A DNA stretch of 64,000 nucleotides from Trueperaceae bacterium (GTDB lineage: Bacteria > Deinococcota > Deinococci > Deinococcales > Trueperaceae), in NCBI GenBank assembly GCA_965215565.1, contig CBDCDZ010000004.1, positions 3,296,001-3,360,000 of the forward strand. The letters are read 5' to 3'. Of the stretch, positions 15,001 to 18,000 are shown one piece after another. Made by a program: the position numbers. Every line of letters starts with the position of its first letter. Positions within the stretch are counted from its first letter, which is position 1.

Positions 15001-18000
15001 TCAAAATTTATCCCGAAGGTCAAATTCACCTCTTCACGCTTAGAACAAACTTACTCACTGAAAATGCTGATAGATATACACACTTTAGAATAAAATCCCG
15101 CCAACGCCTCGAGCTGAAGTCTGAGTGGCGTCTCGTTCGGTGCGCGAAAAAGCTGGAGTCGTGTGAGCGATACTTTGCTCCGTAGCAAGGCGCAGGTTTT
15201 GGTTCGTTGCGAAAGCTATATGGTATAACTTACACCACACTAAAAGTTAATTAAGCTACATTAGGCGCTCCGCAGTTCGAATTATCCTCCTAACGTGCAA
15301 TACTAAGAGATATTTTGAGCTGCACGGCTAATGATTCGGGGGAGGGGGTGAAAAGAGAGATGAACGACGTGGACGAAGCTGCGCTGCCGCAAGGACTCTC
15401 CCTTCGTAAAAAAGGGGAGAGCTTAGAGACGGTCTCCTCGAAAGCCATCGAGGTGCAGCTTCTGGCGGCGGGGCAGGGCGTAGAGATTCTTGAAGGAAAA
15501 TTGGGTAAGGGCAAGCGAATAACGCTCGTCCCTTCGGGTAAAGCGCTAGAGACATACTATATTTTGGAGGGACAGTTGCGTAGCGATAGCGATGCTGCCG
15601 CCAGGTCTATAGCTGTGGATGCGGGAGATTACCTCGTGACGGAGTCGCTAGCAGAATCTTACACCCTACTCGCGCAAACTGACGTTCGCTTTCTCTACTT
15701 CACCTCACAACCCACCTTTCACGAGATAAGCGAAGAGTTGGGCGATCTGATGCGGCTCGCCGTCGAAGTCGAAGTCAAGGACGGTTACACCGCCGAGCAT
15801 TGCAGGCGGTTACAGGTGCTCTCCTACGCGGCGGGACAGGAACTCGGCTTGGCGCAAGACAGGCTCTACCTTTTGGATTACGGCGCATATTTACACGATG
15901 TAGGCAAAGTCAAAGTGCCCGCCAACATCCTGCGCAAGCCCTCCACGCTGACCCAAGCGGAATGGGCGCTGATGAAAAAGCACCCTACGTTCGGGCGCGA
16001 ACTGCTCGAGAAAACCTACCTTAAAAGAGCCGGCGTCATCGTCGAACAGCATCACGAGCGTTTAGACGGAAGTGGCTACCCCCACGCACTCTCCGGGGAG
16101 GACGTCCTCATCGAGTCCTATATCGTCGCCGTCGCAGACGCCTACGACGCGATGACCACAGACCGCCCCTACCGCCGCGCCGCGCCGCCAGAGCAAGCGT
16201 TTATCGAACTTAGGAAATACGCCGGGATATACTACCCGAAAGAGGTCGTGCGCGCCTTTATTTCGGTTGTGATGAGAAAAGCGCTGTAATACCAAAGTGA
16301 TTTAAGGGTGTCACAAAGTGACAGCCTTAAACGCTCTATGAGCGTAACTTCTAACGTCCTCACATTGTGACACCTCCTTTTCAGTCTGGTATAACACTAA
16401 CAATCTGCGAACACTCAACCAAAACAAACTGGACGCTGTTACGGTTCTGCGTGACGCTTCTCCACCCTCTGAGCGCTCGGGCGGTACGCCGAAGCGTAGA
16501 CTTTTTTGGTACTTGCGTACTCCCTCCTAACTATTGAAAGCGGTATTTCTATACGCTGACGCCGCACAGTTCAGCCGTAAAGTATGAGAACGCTTTTTAC
16601 GTTAATAACTTCATAAGGCCCGCTCCAATCGGATAAGAAGAATCTCACGCACTATTAAAAAAGCTTCTATGAGTTCTCAGTGTGCTCGATGTCACTCGGT
16701 TTCATCTTTGTGAAAAGTCCGCCACGGAGTATTTCAGTACCCATGATACGTTGTGTTTCGAGGTTGATAAGCCTCATCGGAAGCGACGACTTCTGTCCCG
16801 CAAGGAGCTTTGCTAAAGGCTCTTCTGGGCGCTTGGGACAGAAGAAGCTAGTAGCGCAACCGGCCGGGACGCTCTTCCGGACAACTTGAAAAGCTTTGGA
16901 AAACCGGAGCACGCCATATCAGGGAGGATATGAAAATGAAAAAGTCACTCATCAAAGCGTTGGTTCTTGCTCTTACTCTTACTGCGTTTGGTACAGTTTC
17001 GACAGCGAGCGCTGCCGAAGGTTCGGACAAGGCTCCGTCAGTTCAAAAGTTTAGAGTCAACTGCTAAAGATTAAAAGTTCACCAACGAACTCCTCTACGA
17101 AGACGTAGAGGAGTTTTCTCTTACCTCTTTTTTGCTGTGAAGTTTTCCACATTGTGGTTGACGCCCTGCAGACGAAATTTAGGGGTAAAAGAGAGAGGGT
17201 ACACATGAAGAAACTCACAAGCTTAACGCTCGTTTTGATGCTGGCTATCTGCGGTTTTTCTGTGGCGTCTGCGGGTGCTGCATCTTCAGACGGTGAGCCG
17301 TCAACTCAGAAGTACAGAGTCAACCGTTAAGGCTGTAAGCAACATACTCGGGCGTCTCCGCGCAGAAGCGGAGGCGCTTTTTTATGTTCTGTCTAATTCA
17401 TACTCCAAGGCTAAAGGTCACGCGCCAAAAAGCGGATTGCCGCTTCGTAACCATGTACCCCTAGCCCTGCAATCGTACCCACACAGACCGCCGAGAGGTA
17501 GCTGTGATGCCTGAAGGCTTCCCTAGCGTAGACGTTGGAAATATGCACCTCGACGACGGGTACGTGAATACCGGAGACCGCGTCGCGTAGCGAGACGGAG
17601 GTGTGGGTTAGACCGCCGGGGTTGATGACGATACCTTTTGCGCCTTCATCCGCAGCCCCGTGAAGCCAGTCGATAAGCTGACCTTCGTAGTTGCTTTGGC
17701 GGCACTGCGCCTCTGTGCCCACCTCAACCGCCCAGCTTTCACACTGGGCTTCTAGGTCGCTAAGGGTTGCCTTGCCATATACGTCAGGCTCGCGTCTGCC
17801 CAAGAGGTTGAGGTTGGGACCGTTGAGGATCAAGATCATGGCTTACGCCGCCGCTTCTGAAGCAACCTCTTGCAGATAGCGCCAAGCACGCTCCAAGTGC
17901 TCATTCGAGACGTCGCTGACTAGGCGGGGATGGCTGGGGGACTCGAGCAACACCCAGCGCACCTTGTCCGCCTTTTTCTTATCGCGTTCAATGTAAGGAA

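Follow-up and report, generated by a model that had tools for sequence, protein, structure and literature searches.

c-di-GMP-II aptamers in front of small signal-peptide genes recur beside cupin plus HD-GYP genes in Trueperaceae

Riboswitches for c-di-GMP control adhesins, pili and flagella. In the Rap-Phr/RNPP systems of the Firmicutes, a pre-peptide, about 40 aa long and made up of a Sec signal peptide and a region with a conserved C-terminal unit, is encoded directly after the gene of its cytoplasmic partner; the active peptide comes from the C-terminal end and is re-imported by the oligopeptide permease, and a genome holds several diverged cassettes. For the c-di-GMP-II-GAG variant we know of no settled ligand. 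In C. difficile, according to the available sections of PMC11477304, the targets of class II riboswitches include adhesins, type IV pili and a signalling system, the examples being transcriptional ON switches, while class I c-di-GMP riboswitches precede genes for 58-aa proteins with no conserved domains; those sections report no phosphodiesterase gene adjacent to these small genes. In RpfC/RpfG DSF signalling of Xanthomonas, an HD-GYP enzyme links an extracellular signal to c-di-GMP turnover (PMC4504480 and PMC3609779). The signal of that system is a fatty acid, its sensor is a membrane kinase, and its HD-GYP protein has a receiver domain. A full-text literature search returned no report of a riboswitch gating a 43-aa exported peptide directly behind a c-di-GMP phosphodiesterase, and searches on the GAG variant, on c-di-GMP-II in Deinococcus and on HD-GYP with cupin turned up nothing on the module described here.

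The locus lies in a 64-kb window, the whole stretch of DNA that was analysed (forward strand; position 1 is position 3,296,001 of contig CBDCDZ010000004.1). Within the window a single Rfam match reaches its gathering score, an aptamer between an HD-GYP gene and two small open reading frames (RF03169, cut-off 40 bits, E 3.4e-5; Table 1). Against RF01786, the class II family known from C. difficile, its 43.8 bits fall below the gathering cut-off of 53.5, and this low score goes along with a loop of 33 nt in place of the 12 nt of the model. The architecture of helices P1-P2-P3, the AGU.G.GCAACCG segment and a position in 5' leaders whose genes encode exported or surface products are common to RF01786 and the window aptamer, whereas the 20-nt hairpin in the P3 loop sets the latter apart. 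All three helices are paired in the consensus arrangement, with two non-standard pairs in helix P1, and the canonical AGUAGCGCAACCGGCC segment, corresponding to the conserved 3' segment AGUgGUGCAACCGgCc of RF01786, is present. The survey's finding of a c-di-GMP-II riboswitch here (contig 3312770-3312873, +) is confirmed. On our reading of the sequence, the loop GGCGCU of the segment GGGCGCU is complementary to AGCGCC / AGCGC; we take this loop segment and the conserved 3' segment to be the pseudoknot partners of the published structure.

Although the window aptamer passes the RF03169 cut-off, it carries the canonical segment. Where the RF03169 consensus has GGCGAGACCG it reads AGCGCAACCG, which is the RF01786 consensus, and at the positions from which the variant takes its name it has GCGCAACCG, like the canonical class, and not GCGAGACCG; the GAG of RF03169 is absent. 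Because it has the canonical GCAACCG in place of that GAG, we regard it as a c-di-GMP-II aptamer with a loop insert, and it presumably binds c-di-GMP. The RF03169 match is not diagnostic, since the genome's four strong canonical aptamers also clear this cut-off. Both halves of the aptamer, 5' and 3', are kept in the two congeners G022 and G023, in which the site of the P3-loop insert holds 66-75 nt; it holds 73 nt at a second locus of this genome (paralog B), and three more aptamers of the genome bear a longer P3-loop hairpin on the same base. The G022 aptamer at the window locus looks degenerate, with GGGCATT where others read GGGCGCT, and went undetected at E <= 0.1. The 130 nt preceding the conserved block 5' of the aptamer are less alike than the block itself (50% identity in G023, 27% in G022). 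A consensus scan of the + strand found no sigma-70 promoter before the aptamer or before the second peptide gene.

Table 1. Features of the locus, in window positions
Feature	Position	Strand	Basis and details
Cupin + HD-GYP gene, predicted c-di-GMP phosphodiesterase, paralog A	15360..16289	+	309 aa from ATG 15360; open frame from TTG 15315
Terminator-like hairpin and T run after the HD-GYP gene	16485..16507	+	Consensus scan; candidate terminator
Conserved block 5' of the aptamer, a candidate for a promoter or 5' leader	16630..16769	+	84% identity in G023, 76% in G022
c-di-GMP-II-type aptamer	16770..16873	+	RF03169 43.5 bits; RF01786 43.8 bits, model positions 1-84
P3-loop insert, 20 nt, potential small hairpin (GAGCTTT / AAAGGCTC)	16802..16821	+	cmscan insert
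Leader with ribosome-binding site GGGAGG (16922-16927)	16874..16935	+	Sequence, terminator scan, folding
Peptide gene P1: signal peptide + AEGSDKAPSVQKFRVNC	16930..17067	+	ORF; 45 aa from 16930, likelier 43 aa from 16936
Terminator-like hairpin after P1: 10-bp stem CTCCTCTACG / CGTAGAGGAG, then TTTTCT	17090..17119	+	Sequence reading
Conserved block before P2 (GCTGTGAAGTTTTCCACATTGTGGTTGACGC) with palindrome CCACATTGTGG	17134..17164	+	Three-genome comparison
Peptide gene P2, 41 aa: signal peptide + GAASSDGEPSTQKYRVNR	17205..17330	+	ORF and ribosome-binding site
Intrinsic-terminator-like site after P2	17350..17389	+	Stem of 12 pairs, 8 G-C, then TTTTATGTTC

Downstream of the aptamer, the two uncalled paralogous reading frames of the survey, P1 and P2, were recovered, and in the same order in both congeners, as it had said. 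In related assemblies the gene callers place the P1 start at the second ATG, which gives 43 aa and leaves GGGAGG 8 nt upstream of that ATG. For P2, whose frame sits within a longer GTG frame, GAGAGGG (17193-17199) stands 5 nt upstream of the ATG. Both tails end [FY]RVN[CR]. By eye and with a crude hydropathy filter, the signal peptide of P1 reads MKKSLIK / ALVLALTLTAFGTV / STASA-AEG and that of P2 MKK / LTSLTLVLMLAICGF / SVASA-G, and both peptides would be exported and processed.

The orthologs in G023 and G022 have identical lengths, with variable columns at codon positions 1/2/3 of 10/7/21 for P1 and 10/7/18 for P2. Across the three genomes the two genes together have 20/14/39 variable columns and no indels; 25 codons vary synonymously only and 27 with a residue change. 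The pattern is the one claimed by the survey, whose absolute numbers (24/14/51 columns; 39 and 32 codons) differ from these, perhaps through different counting. With the third peptide paralog of the genome, P3, added, the columns come to 45/34/72, and all three genes have equal-length orthologs in 3 of 3 congeners. At the sequence level this supports the view that P1 and P2 evolve as coding DNA. That the small frames are untranslated and conserved only as RNA, for example as an expression platform or small RNA, is very improbable. The Arg-Val-Asn codons AGA GTC AAC are nucleotide-identical in 9 of 9 copies of P1-P3, as an RNA element might be, but exact length is kept while the flanks carry indels, third-position change is in excess, and the ribosome-binding sites are correctly spaced. 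Moreover, the paralogs retain the signal-peptide architecture at 39-49% identity, some of them have no aptamer at all, and other genera keep the residue pattern of the tail through different codons. Between P1 and P2, the block at 17134-17164 is nearly invariant across the three genomes, with indels in its flanks.

A terminator scan of the leader found no terminator between the aptamer and the P1 start codon, so that control is probably translational, in contrast to the class II examples of C. difficile. The target differs as well, being a 43-aa pre-peptide gene directly after a phosphodiesterase gene. When eight leaders were folded with the aptamer closed or open (minimum free energy and partition function), no consistent switch in the accessibility of the ribosome-binding site appeared; in most leaders the site was mostly paired in both modelled states, and in the window leader it was mostly free in both. 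P2 has no aptamer of its own, and the terminator-like hairpin after P1 separates the two genes. The stem of this hairpin is kept in G023 and G022; the hairpin is not in the list of the consensus terminator scan. Riboswitch control of P2 is therefore only putative.

The gene before the aptamer, paralog A, has orthologs that begin at MNDVDEAALPQG. Its product scores 99.2 bits against Pfam HD_5 and 61.1 bits against HD, and its HD (YLHDVGK) and GYP (DGSGYP) motifs are readable and invariant in 50 relatives. AlphaFold2 modelled an N-terminal beta-barrel and a helical domain (mean pLDDT 91.1), and Foldseek matched the model to the HD-GYP structures 4mcw (E 1.2e-13), 4r8z and 9rbz. We predict from these matches that paralog A is an HD-GYP c-di-GMP phosphodiesterase. 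The barrel, modelled at pLDDT 80-96, resembles the cupins 5by5 (E 7.8e-7, TM 0.75 on the target) and tm1459; Pfam Cupin_2 gave one weak match, in a single relative (17.3 bits, cut-off 27.2). This N-terminal domain has no invariant His, while E42, E64 and G71 are invariant. The genome encodes five full-length cupin plus HD-GYP paralogs, which are 33-56% identical in the N-terminal domain as against 49-65% over the whole protein.

Four of these five paralogs have beside them a mini-ORF for a signal peptide and a related tail. As a baseline, any such mini-ORF occurs 50-950 nt downstream of 97 of 2331 long ORFs (4.2%). Gene P3 (contig 1236684-1236809, minus strand) lies directly after the second HD-GYP gene and behind a weaker aptamer match (30.9 bits for RF01786, and 25.1 bits), so that at both loci the peptide unit directly follows an HD-GYP gene, as the survey had it. 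That match had been called partial. It is in fact a complete aptamer, whose 5' half lies about 75 nt upstream, beyond a large loop insert, and whose helix P2, judged by eye, still pairs after changes on both sides. Beside the third paralog the 41-aa frame g03677 (contig 3831278-3831403, tail PFRFDN) was likewise found as described, in divergent orientation and without an aptamer. A fifth peptide, with a tandem GFKISN tail (x2), lies beside another cupin plus HD-GYP paralog and extends the earlier list. This genome has 531 small ORFs that look like signal-peptide genes and are preceded by a ribosome-binding site; 10 of them end in the broad tail pattern, and five of those 10 are the peptides beside HD-GYP paralogs. 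The pairing of the tail pattern with HD-GYP paralogs is non-random and exceeds chance. We also considered the tail as a general C-terminal sorting tag and rejected this: it is not common at the ends of large proteins in this genome, where it closes only the set of five peptides, the secreted partner described below and a few unrelated frames. A profile of seven peptides hit 10 significant places among 128 genomes of the family, all in the three congeners, and 10 clusters of 40-43 aa among 5.8 billion proteins. Neither the mini-peptides nor that partner matched a Pfam or NCBIfam family.

The survey's motif scan had found both peptide genes only in the own locus and the two congeners, and it had called the peptide confined to a few genera. 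A scan across genera that accepted any signal-peptide mini-ORF, and not the RVN tail alone, showed that the unit extends beyond the genus: in three further genera the unit follows orthologous HD-GYP genes, with aptamers above the Rfam cut-off (57.5-69.1 bits). The unit of HD-GYP gene, canonical c-di-GMP-II aptamer (57-69 bits) and small signal-peptide ORF thus occurs in at least four genera; it is real and conserved, and its recurrence, which the survey had proposed, holds across genera. Mini-ORFs follow the orthologous HD-GYP genes in G024, G025, G026, G027, G102, G121 and G122, and in 11 peptide loci an aptamer lies between enzyme gene and mini-ORF. At the equivalent place the RF01786 cut-off was passed in 6 of 12 loci scanned (69.1, 64.9, 64.4, 63.1, 62.1 and 57.5 bits), and an aptamer was detected at E <= 0.1 in 9 of the 12. 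RNAalifold, applied to 10 canonical aptamers of which six precede mini-peptides, found compensatory changes in 13 of 19 pairs. Tails sometimes occur in 2-7 tandem copies (GFTVTN x2, GAIATK x7, PVTNPFRFSN / PVTNPFRFSR); those of three mini-ORFs, one in each of G102, G024 and G026, are off-pattern.

One could regard the product as an ordinary envelope peptide that is not specially tied to the enzyme, just another small product of the surface or periplasm under a riboswitch; its place beside HD-GYP genes would then come from common regulation or from duplication. What follows the genome's other aptamers are indeed genes for lipoproteins or secreted proteins, and the excerpts of PMC11477304 describe class I c-di-GMP riboswitches of C. 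difficile in front of genes for 58-aa proteins; these too are small genes without an assigned function, and the c-di-GMP riboswitch that controls them is of the other class. The loci are also kin and not independent, which makes locus counts overstate the association, and the tree used was a quick tree. We nonetheless find this account quite unlikely, as the pairing holds in aptamer-free clades, in both orientations and in at least five genera, and the tail units have been multiplied in tandem.

At 28 of 62 related loci, a profile search identified a secreted protein or lipoprotein of about 100 aa as the neighbor of the HD-GYP gene, and in this family it is what usually lies downstream of the cupin plus HD-GYP genes; 15 of 60 HD-GYP loci have neither this partner nor a mini-peptide. 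The partner ends in (V/I)DP[FLI]x[FY][SN]x, a VDPFRFN-like tail in which D100 and P101 are invariant. Its AlphaFold2 model (pLDDT 80.2) had no clear counterpart in a set of 48,161 representative chains (best Z 2.9), a best Foldseek E of 0.82, and in the ESM Atlas only scores under 0.9. The mini-peptides look like a signal peptide plus a miniature partner tail, sometimes in tandem, and are best read in this way from their sequences. Because the likeness between partner and peptide tails spans only 5-9 residues and the partner profile did not detect the mini-peptides, they may descend from the partner or may have converged on it. In a six-frame search of the whole genome the partner profile found only the gene at locus C, and no remnant of a partner gene in the 480-nt spacer 16290-16769. 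Complex prediction for paralog C and the partner (residues 23-106), made with alignments and without controls, scored 0.00 against a mark of 0.32, which is no evidence either way.

In G032 and G060 a single aptamer precedes a 97-101-aa member of the partner family ending DPFRFNR, directly followed by a gene for an S8 subtilase lipoprotein (Pfam 112.4 bits). An S8 gene is present in two more module loci of G086, and the homologous S8 gene of the window's genome has an aptamer match of its own (41.6 bits). The tail might therefore be a substrate- or inhibitor-like segment for secreted subtilisin-type proteases under c-di-GMP-II riboswitches, with the mini-peptides as small competitive substrates or inhibitors, or as cleavage products; in the partner model the tail is a lower-confidence end after the last strand, which would suit such a role. 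We consider this unlikely. Just 4 of 62 loci have an S8 gene close to the module, and we rejected the protease tie as a general rule on this count; the partner model does not match a known inhibitor or propeptide fold, and the partner's tie to the phosphodiesterase would be left unexplained.

Among the systems close to the module is Rap-Phr, with which it shares the size of the pre-peptide, the Sec signal (here a predicted one), the C-terminal unit, the gene placement and the presence of multiple cassettes. The two differ in that Rap is a TPR receptor, whereas the enzyme here is a cupin plus HD-GYP protein without TPR; TPR repeats occur only in G032 and G060, in 956-aa fusions that place these repeats and a GGDEF domain ahead of the cupin plus HD-GYP unit. 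The lineage also differs, Deinococcus-Thermus as against Firmicutes, and in many loci a folded protein of about 100 aa replaces the peptide. The GFKISN peptide scored 13 bits against NCBIfam PhrK (cut-off 35), which is not significant. As in RpfC/RpfG, an HD-GYP phosphodiesterase would couple an extracellular signal to c-di-GMP turnover, here with a candidate ribosomal peptide and a putative cupin sensor in place of the fatty acid, the membrane kinase and the receiver domain.

It is conceivable, as a tentative proposal, that the module is a peptide cell-cell signalling circuit wired into c-di-GMP, in which each phosphodiesterase senses the C-terminal 5-10 residues of its own partner. The exported peptide, or a C-terminal piece of it, would be re-imported and bind the cupin domain of the HD-GYP enzyme, altering c-di-GMP breakdown; the riboswitch would close the loop, and the paralog pairs A, B, C and D would be cognate receptor-peptide cassettes, as in Rap-Phr. 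Distinct tails at four of the five paralogs (QK[FY]RVN[CR], NIFRVNR, PFRFDN and GFKISN x2) are consistent with this, and the 2-7 tandem units of 5-6 residues would suit a precursor that yields several short products. The sensor-like cupin domain, without a conserved His and diverging faster than the catalytic domain, points the same way, as do the fusions in G032 and G060 and the fact that the peptide stays beside the enzyme even in modules without an aptamer. On the other hand, the enzyme is cytoplasmic, having no signal peptide where the peptide has one, so that direct contact would require re-uptake, and genes for peptide import are not conserved next to the module; the usual partner, a folded secreted protein or lipoprotein of about 100 aa, would be odd as a pheromone precursor.

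Our main reading, to which we assign a probability of roughly 0.6, is that a riboswitch-controlled exported tail-peptide forms one functional unit with the adjacent phosphodiesterase. The c-di-GMP-II riboswitch with its P3-loop hairpin would act on a small gene whose product is a Sec-exported pre-peptide. Its target would be P1, most likely through translation initiation, with P2 co-controlled only if transcription reads through the hairpin after P1; c-di-GMP would thereby gate release of the peptide. Cleavage of the signal peptide would leave about 17-19 residues outside the cytoplasm, and the conserved C-terminal [FY][RK]VN[RC] would be the working part. The mini-peptides may be the partner cut down to signal peptide and tail, with tandem tail copies in some lineages. 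Since the adjacent phosphodiesterase would help to adjust the c-di-GMP concentration sensed by the riboswitch, enzyme and tail-peptide would belong together functionally.

The c-di-GMP-II aptamers with a P3-loop hairpin form a subclass that the current Rfam model misses or truncates, and mini-genes behind seemingly orphan riboswitches can be found from the common features of riboswitch neighbors. If the signalling circuit were true, the production of the signal would depend on the messenger that its receptor degrades. The circuit would then act as a c-di-GMP oscillator or homeostat that regulates itself and is coupled to the population, and each genome would hold several orthogonal cassettes, in which the partner would be either a protein of about 100 aa or a miniaturised 40-aa pre-peptide, sometimes with 2-7 tandem copies of the tail. 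The comparative picture is one of a single enzyme subfamily, a single tailed secreted partner, repeated shrinking to signal peptide plus tail, and tandem copies. It leads to a testable hypothesis that ties an extracytoplasmic peptide to second-messenger turnover, and it hints at a link between the two that has not been described.

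Paralog A, the HD-GYP gene of the window (see table), encodes an ordinary HD-GYP domain joined to an unusual, putative cupin sensor. An AlphaFold2 model of the protein (mean pLDDT 91.1) showed a beta-barrel at the N-terminus and a helical domain after it. By Foldseek, the helical part matched solved HD-GYP phosphodiesterases (4mcw, E = 1.2e-13; 4r8z; 9rbz) and the barrel matched cupins (5by5, E = 7.8e-7). Among 50 relatives the barrel had no invariant histidine; its invariant residues were E42, E64 and G71.

Downstream of this gene lie an aptamer and the two small pre-peptide genes, P1 and P2. 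In both products (P1, AEGSDKAPSVQKFRVNC; P2, GAASSDGEPSTQKYRVNR) the N-terminus is basic and leads into a hydrophobic core with a putative ASA-type cleavage site, after which the tail is hydrophilic. Gene calls in related assemblies start P1 at the second ATG, which gives 43 aa. A terminator scan placed a strong terminator-like site on the 3' side of P2, and shikimate-pathway genes follow on the opposite strand. Palindromes built on CACATTGTG were observed at 16363-16373 (TCACATTGTGA) and 17148-17158 (CCACATTGTGG), the second copy falling within a block (17134-17164) that is nearly invariant among three species; another palindrome, GTCACAAAGTGAC, lies at about 16310-16322, in the 16300-16375 region.

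Features of the module in the window and elsewhere (window, window positions; C4, contig positions; L, fetched loci)
Feature	Position	Strand	Remarks
HD-GYP protein gene (paralog A)	window 15360-16289	+	Pfam HD_5, 99.2 bits
c-di-GMP-II-type aptamer	window 16770-16873	+	RF03169, 43.5 bits, cut-off 40, E 3.4e-5
P3-loop insert, 20 nt	window 16802-16821	+	small hairpin possible, GAGCTTT / AAAGGCTC
P1, small ORF	window 16930-17067	+	ribosome-binding site GGGAGG 16922-16927, 8 nt before second ATG 16936
AGA GTC AAC codons, P1	window 17053-17061
Hairpin 3' of P1	window 17090-17119	+	10 bp then TTTT; read from sequence; conserved in congeners
P2, small ORF	window 17205-17330	+	GAGAGGG 5 nt before ATG
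AGA GTC AAC codons, P2	window 17316-17324
AGA GTC AAC codons, P3	L007 1334-1342	-
Paralog B	C4 1238024-1237125	-	then aptamer and P3 (...NIFRVNR)
Paralog C	C4 3830990-3830079	-	divergent 41-aa ORF upstream (...TNPFRFDN), g03677 of the survey
Paralog D	C4 983671-982790	-	42-aa ORF 240 nt downstream, same strand: MKKIALALLLIFTVSLSSTTFAGSSSKSSDGFKISNGFKISN
Aptamer, 3' half	C4 3168323-3168408	-	Rfam
Aptamer, 3' half	C4 2505947-2506019	+	Rfam
Aptamer, 3' half	C4 4293659-4293731	-	Rfam
956-aa fused protein (G060)	L153 48-2915		GGDEF 145.9 bits
956-aa fused protein (G032)	L152 524-3391		GGDEF 145.9 bits

As the survey had reported, both peptide genes occur in the same order in two congeners, G022 and G023. 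P1, P2 and P3, the third paralog, each had the same length in all three copies, with indels confined to flanking DNA, and their variable columns at codon positions 1/2/3 numbered 10/7/21 (P1), 10/7/18 (P2) and 25/20/33 (P3). Our genome and G022 were 75-80% identical over the ORFs; the figure was 54% for the intervening spacer and 39% beyond P2. We infer that P1 and P2 are translated. A profile built from seven peptides was searched against 128 family genomes translated in six frames. It gave ten significant places, none of them outside the three congeners; the best match in any other genome (E = 0.003) covered only the signal peptide of a 189-aa frame, and G089, one of the 128, gave no significant match. 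Against 5.8 billion proteins the profile picked up ten clusters whose members are 40-43 aa long, with KFRVNR, KYRVNC and AYKVNR among their tails. The Arg-Val-Asn codons read AGA GTC AAC in all nine copies of P1 to P3; they are kept to the nucleotide, AGA for Arg included, while the proteins are only 39-49% identical.

The aptamer passed the cut-off of RF03169, the c-di-GMP-II-GAG variant, and no second Rfam match at gathering score was found across the 64-kb window. Its score to the parent family RF01786 was 43.8 bits, below the cut-off of 53.5. The alignment to RF01786 spanned model positions 1-84 and kept all three stems, P1 (two of its pairs non-standard), P2 and P3. The score loss was located in the P3 loop, which has 33 nt against the 12 expected by RF01786; the canonical segment AGUAGCGCAACCGGCC was present, and the GAG that gives RF03169 its name was absent. 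Because of the kept stems, the canonical segment and the place of the score loss, we read this element as a c-di-GMP-II aptamer carrying a loop insert. The match to RF03169 is not diagnostic, since the four strong canonical aptamers of the genome (64.8-74.3 bits to RF01786) likewise pass its cut-off. The window aptamer is a member-like variant of the known class, with its structural features and an Rfam score below its cut-off. P2 had no aptamer of its own in the Rfam scan of window and genome or in the RF01786 comparison, so that the riboswitch could act on it only if transcription read through.

The aptamer match before P3 had been described as partial. It proved to be complete: the 5' half (GCCTCTACGGACGTGATGA) of the 57-nt match lies about 75 nt upstream, with 73 nt inserted between the halves, again at the P3-loop position. 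In G023 the orthologous position holds an 84-nt aptamer without insert (69.1 bits), and in G022 an aptamer of 47.5 bits whose insert is 20 nt long. At locus A, the surroundings of paralog A, the insert lengths are 20 nt (our genome), 75 nt (G023) and 66 nt (G022). In the last of these the loop segment is altered (GGGCATT vs GGGCGCT) and Rfam gave no detection at E <= 0.1. For three more aptamers of the genome, reported by Rfam as 3' halves only, the 5' halves were located upstream at a distance of 57-63 nt. Unlinked aptamers of the genome have the base of their inserted stem in common (GAGCTTTAGCAGGT ... ACCTGCAGCTAAAGRCTC). Together, the inserts at loci A and B and the three further aptamers sharing the stem base show that the genus has a c-di-GMP-II subclass with an extra P3-loop hairpin of 20-75 nt. 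The current Rfam model truncates such aptamers to their 3' halves or under-scores them.

Two of the three, at 2505947 and 4293659, show no difference across a stretch of at least 300 nt that includes the upstream leader and the start of the downstream lipoprotein-like ORF; the riboswitch-gene unit was probably duplicated recently. Elsewhere on the contig, tandem strong c-di-GMP-II aptamers about 100 nt apart (2483145-2483228 and 2483327-2483412, plus strand; 74.3 and 66.5 bits) precede a secreted protein of about 167 aa, and about 1 kb further on a third (2484414-2484498, plus strand; 64.8 bits) precedes a paralogous secreted protein of about 185 aa.

The genome encodes five full-length cupin and HD-GYP paralogs, A to E. 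The 42-aa ORF behind paralog D, which has a ribosome-binding site and a terminator, was absent from the survey's account; paralog E has no adjoining mini-ORF, as we call a small ORF with a signal peptide. With a crude filter (signal-peptide-like, with ribosome-binding site), 531 small ORFs of the genome passed, and 97 of 2331 long ORFs (4.2%) had such a mini-ORF 50-950 nt downstream in a control. A broad tail pattern ends 10 of the 531, five of which are the peptides beside the paralogs. In this genome the tail does not act as a general C-terminal tag. Between paralog D and its peptide (about 982540-982790, minus strand), GGCAACCTTT occurs three times directly and once inverted (AAAGGTTGCC); these repeats may be a putative regulator binding site where other paralogs carry an aptamer.

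Queried with the cupin domain alone (135 aa), the 128 family genomes gave 62 matching places, spread over 34 genomes and 14 of 36 genera; no match at E <= 1e-8 was obtained in 236 genomes from the five other families of the phylum. We fetched the 62 loci, all chosen through the enzyme, and scanned 60 for any small signal-peptide ORF close to the enzyme gene, not for the RVN tail. The survey had seen the peptide in none of 27 other loci, a result of the tail-specific motif used for that scan: mini-ORFs do follow the enzyme gene in other genera. Same-strand examples end in LFEFNR (G025 and G024), VQKFEVNK (G121), AKFWPSK (G027 and G026), GGGYGTDG (G102) and ADGFRPEQ (a second locus of G026), and that of G122 has GAIATK seven times. 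Upstream divergent mini-ORFs of G025 and G024 carry GFTVTN GFTVTN GVSVSK and GFTVST GFTVST GVPAGK. Between enzyme gene and mini-ORF lie six canonical aptamers above the Rfam cut-off, the one at locus B of G023 and those of G102 (64.9 bits), G024 (64.4), G027 (63.1), G026 (62.1) and G025 (57.5). RNAalifold on these six and the four strong aptamers of our genome gave the expected helices, with compensatory changes at 13 of 19 pairs.

The genus of G121 and G122 has mini-peptides without a c-di-GMP-II aptamer. Its two loci, with the enzyme gene on the plus strand, share a leader hairpin, GAAGACG...CGTCTTC (L100, about 3010-3060; L132, about 905-950), with loop A.GCCAGAG and then a GGCGC-rich stretch. 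This hairpin may be a different or decayed regulatory RNA.

In most loci without a mini-ORF, the gene 8-160 nt behind that of the enzyme encodes what we call the partner, a protein of 93-107 aa bearing either a signal peptide or a lipobox. Its C-terminal part is conserved (for example ...QEGTHE.ITDVSGAEVDHYYIW.CL...CIPVDPFRFNN); in an alignment of 21 members H72, Y87, D100 and P101 were invariant and the end read (V/I)DP[FLI]x[FY][SN]x. By profile search, 28 of the 62 loci contain a family member, and our genome has one, directly behind paralog C (...ACIPVDPFRFSD). Among 5.8 billion proteins there were 51 relatives, the named ones being "hypothetical protein"; none of the 51 had a Pfam domain, and Pfam and NCBIfam searches with the partner itself were also blank. 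AlphaFold2 modelled it (pLDDT 80.2) as one strand, two helices and a strand hairpin, ending in a tail of lower confidence; the model matched no solved fold, either in a search of representative chains or by Foldseek. In a few loci the partner domain is fused to or overlaps the end of the HD-GYP frame (G091, L129) or forms the C-terminus of a 136-282-aa frame (G051 and G053, L105/L111); such cases could reflect fusion, a longer form or a frameshift in the assembly.

Peptide and partner resemble each other in their tails: PVTNPFRFDN of the mini-ORF at locus C against PVDPFRFSD of the neighboring enzyme's partner, and SVQKFRVNC and LFEFNR of other peptides against PVDPFRFNN and VDPFEFSR of partners. 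A small ORF behind the partner gene of G024 has the tail twice (APVTNPFRFSN DVPVTNPFRFSR). When 60 loci were scanned for both, 27 had the partner, 18 only a mini-ORF (three with a tail outside the pattern) and 15 neither (several being fragments at contig ends). In an enzyme tree made by a quick method only, peptide-bearing and partner-bearing loci were interleaved in several clades. The apparent shrinking to the tail and its tandem copies argue for the tail as the active part. One possibility is that the tail peptide, after re-uptake, is sensed by the cupin domain in a signal loop. Tandem tail units fit such a loop, as does the cassette-like diversification of four paralogs with four tails; we regard it as a rather improbable account.

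The enzyme unit of G032 and G060 closes a longer chain, a 956-aa TPR-GGDEF-cupin-HD-GYP protein, behind which come an aptamer, a 97-101-aa partner ending in DPFRFNR and an S8 subtilase lipoprotein. The S8 gene, present in 4 of the 62 loci, suggested a protease-related role of the tail; such a role would, however, leave the tail product's tie to the phosphodiesterase unexplained. The long protein has synthase and phosphodiesterase domains in one chain, before a riboswitch-controlled tail protein. Our genome has an aptamer-like match (941494-941580, plus strand; 41.6 bits to RF03169, 33 to RF01786) before an S8 subtilase lipoprotein (ORF from 941726; L006 1733-3085) in which GYSAWSGG is repeated four times and whose relatives in G032 and G060 are in one unit with the tail protein.

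As to the mode of control, no terminator was found from the window aptamer to the start codon, by sequence or terminator scan, and 3' of the aptamer lie pyrimidine tracts that could pair with the ribosome-binding site; for these reasons control here is probably translational. The leaders of G024 and G025 have a terminator-like hairpin with a U run ahead of the ribosome-binding site. Leader folding with the aptamer closed or open gave an inconsistent ON/OFF direction. The C. difficile class II c-di-GMP riboswitches studied in the cited work are ON switches (PMC11477304), which bears on the window riboswitch by analogy only.

A literature search over the full text of articles found none combining c-di-GMP, riboswitch, secreted peptide and quorum; nothing on the module appeared among the matches listed for HD-GYP with cupin, or for c-di-GMP-II with Deinococcus. 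What appears new is the type of gene regulated, a 43-aa and putatively exported pre-peptide; the constant position of this gene after one for a phosphodiesterase; the partner family of about 100 aa; and the apparent miniaturisation of that partner. The survey's observation was confirmed and extended. Its interpretation, that c-di-GMP gates the release of a short extracellular peptide, is partly supported and sharpened, the function being what we infer: the enzyme and a secreted tail-bearing product would form one unit, the product would in several lineages be reduced to signal peptide and tail, the tail at times multiplied, and a c-di-GMP-II riboswitch between both genes would make the product dependent on c-di-GMP.
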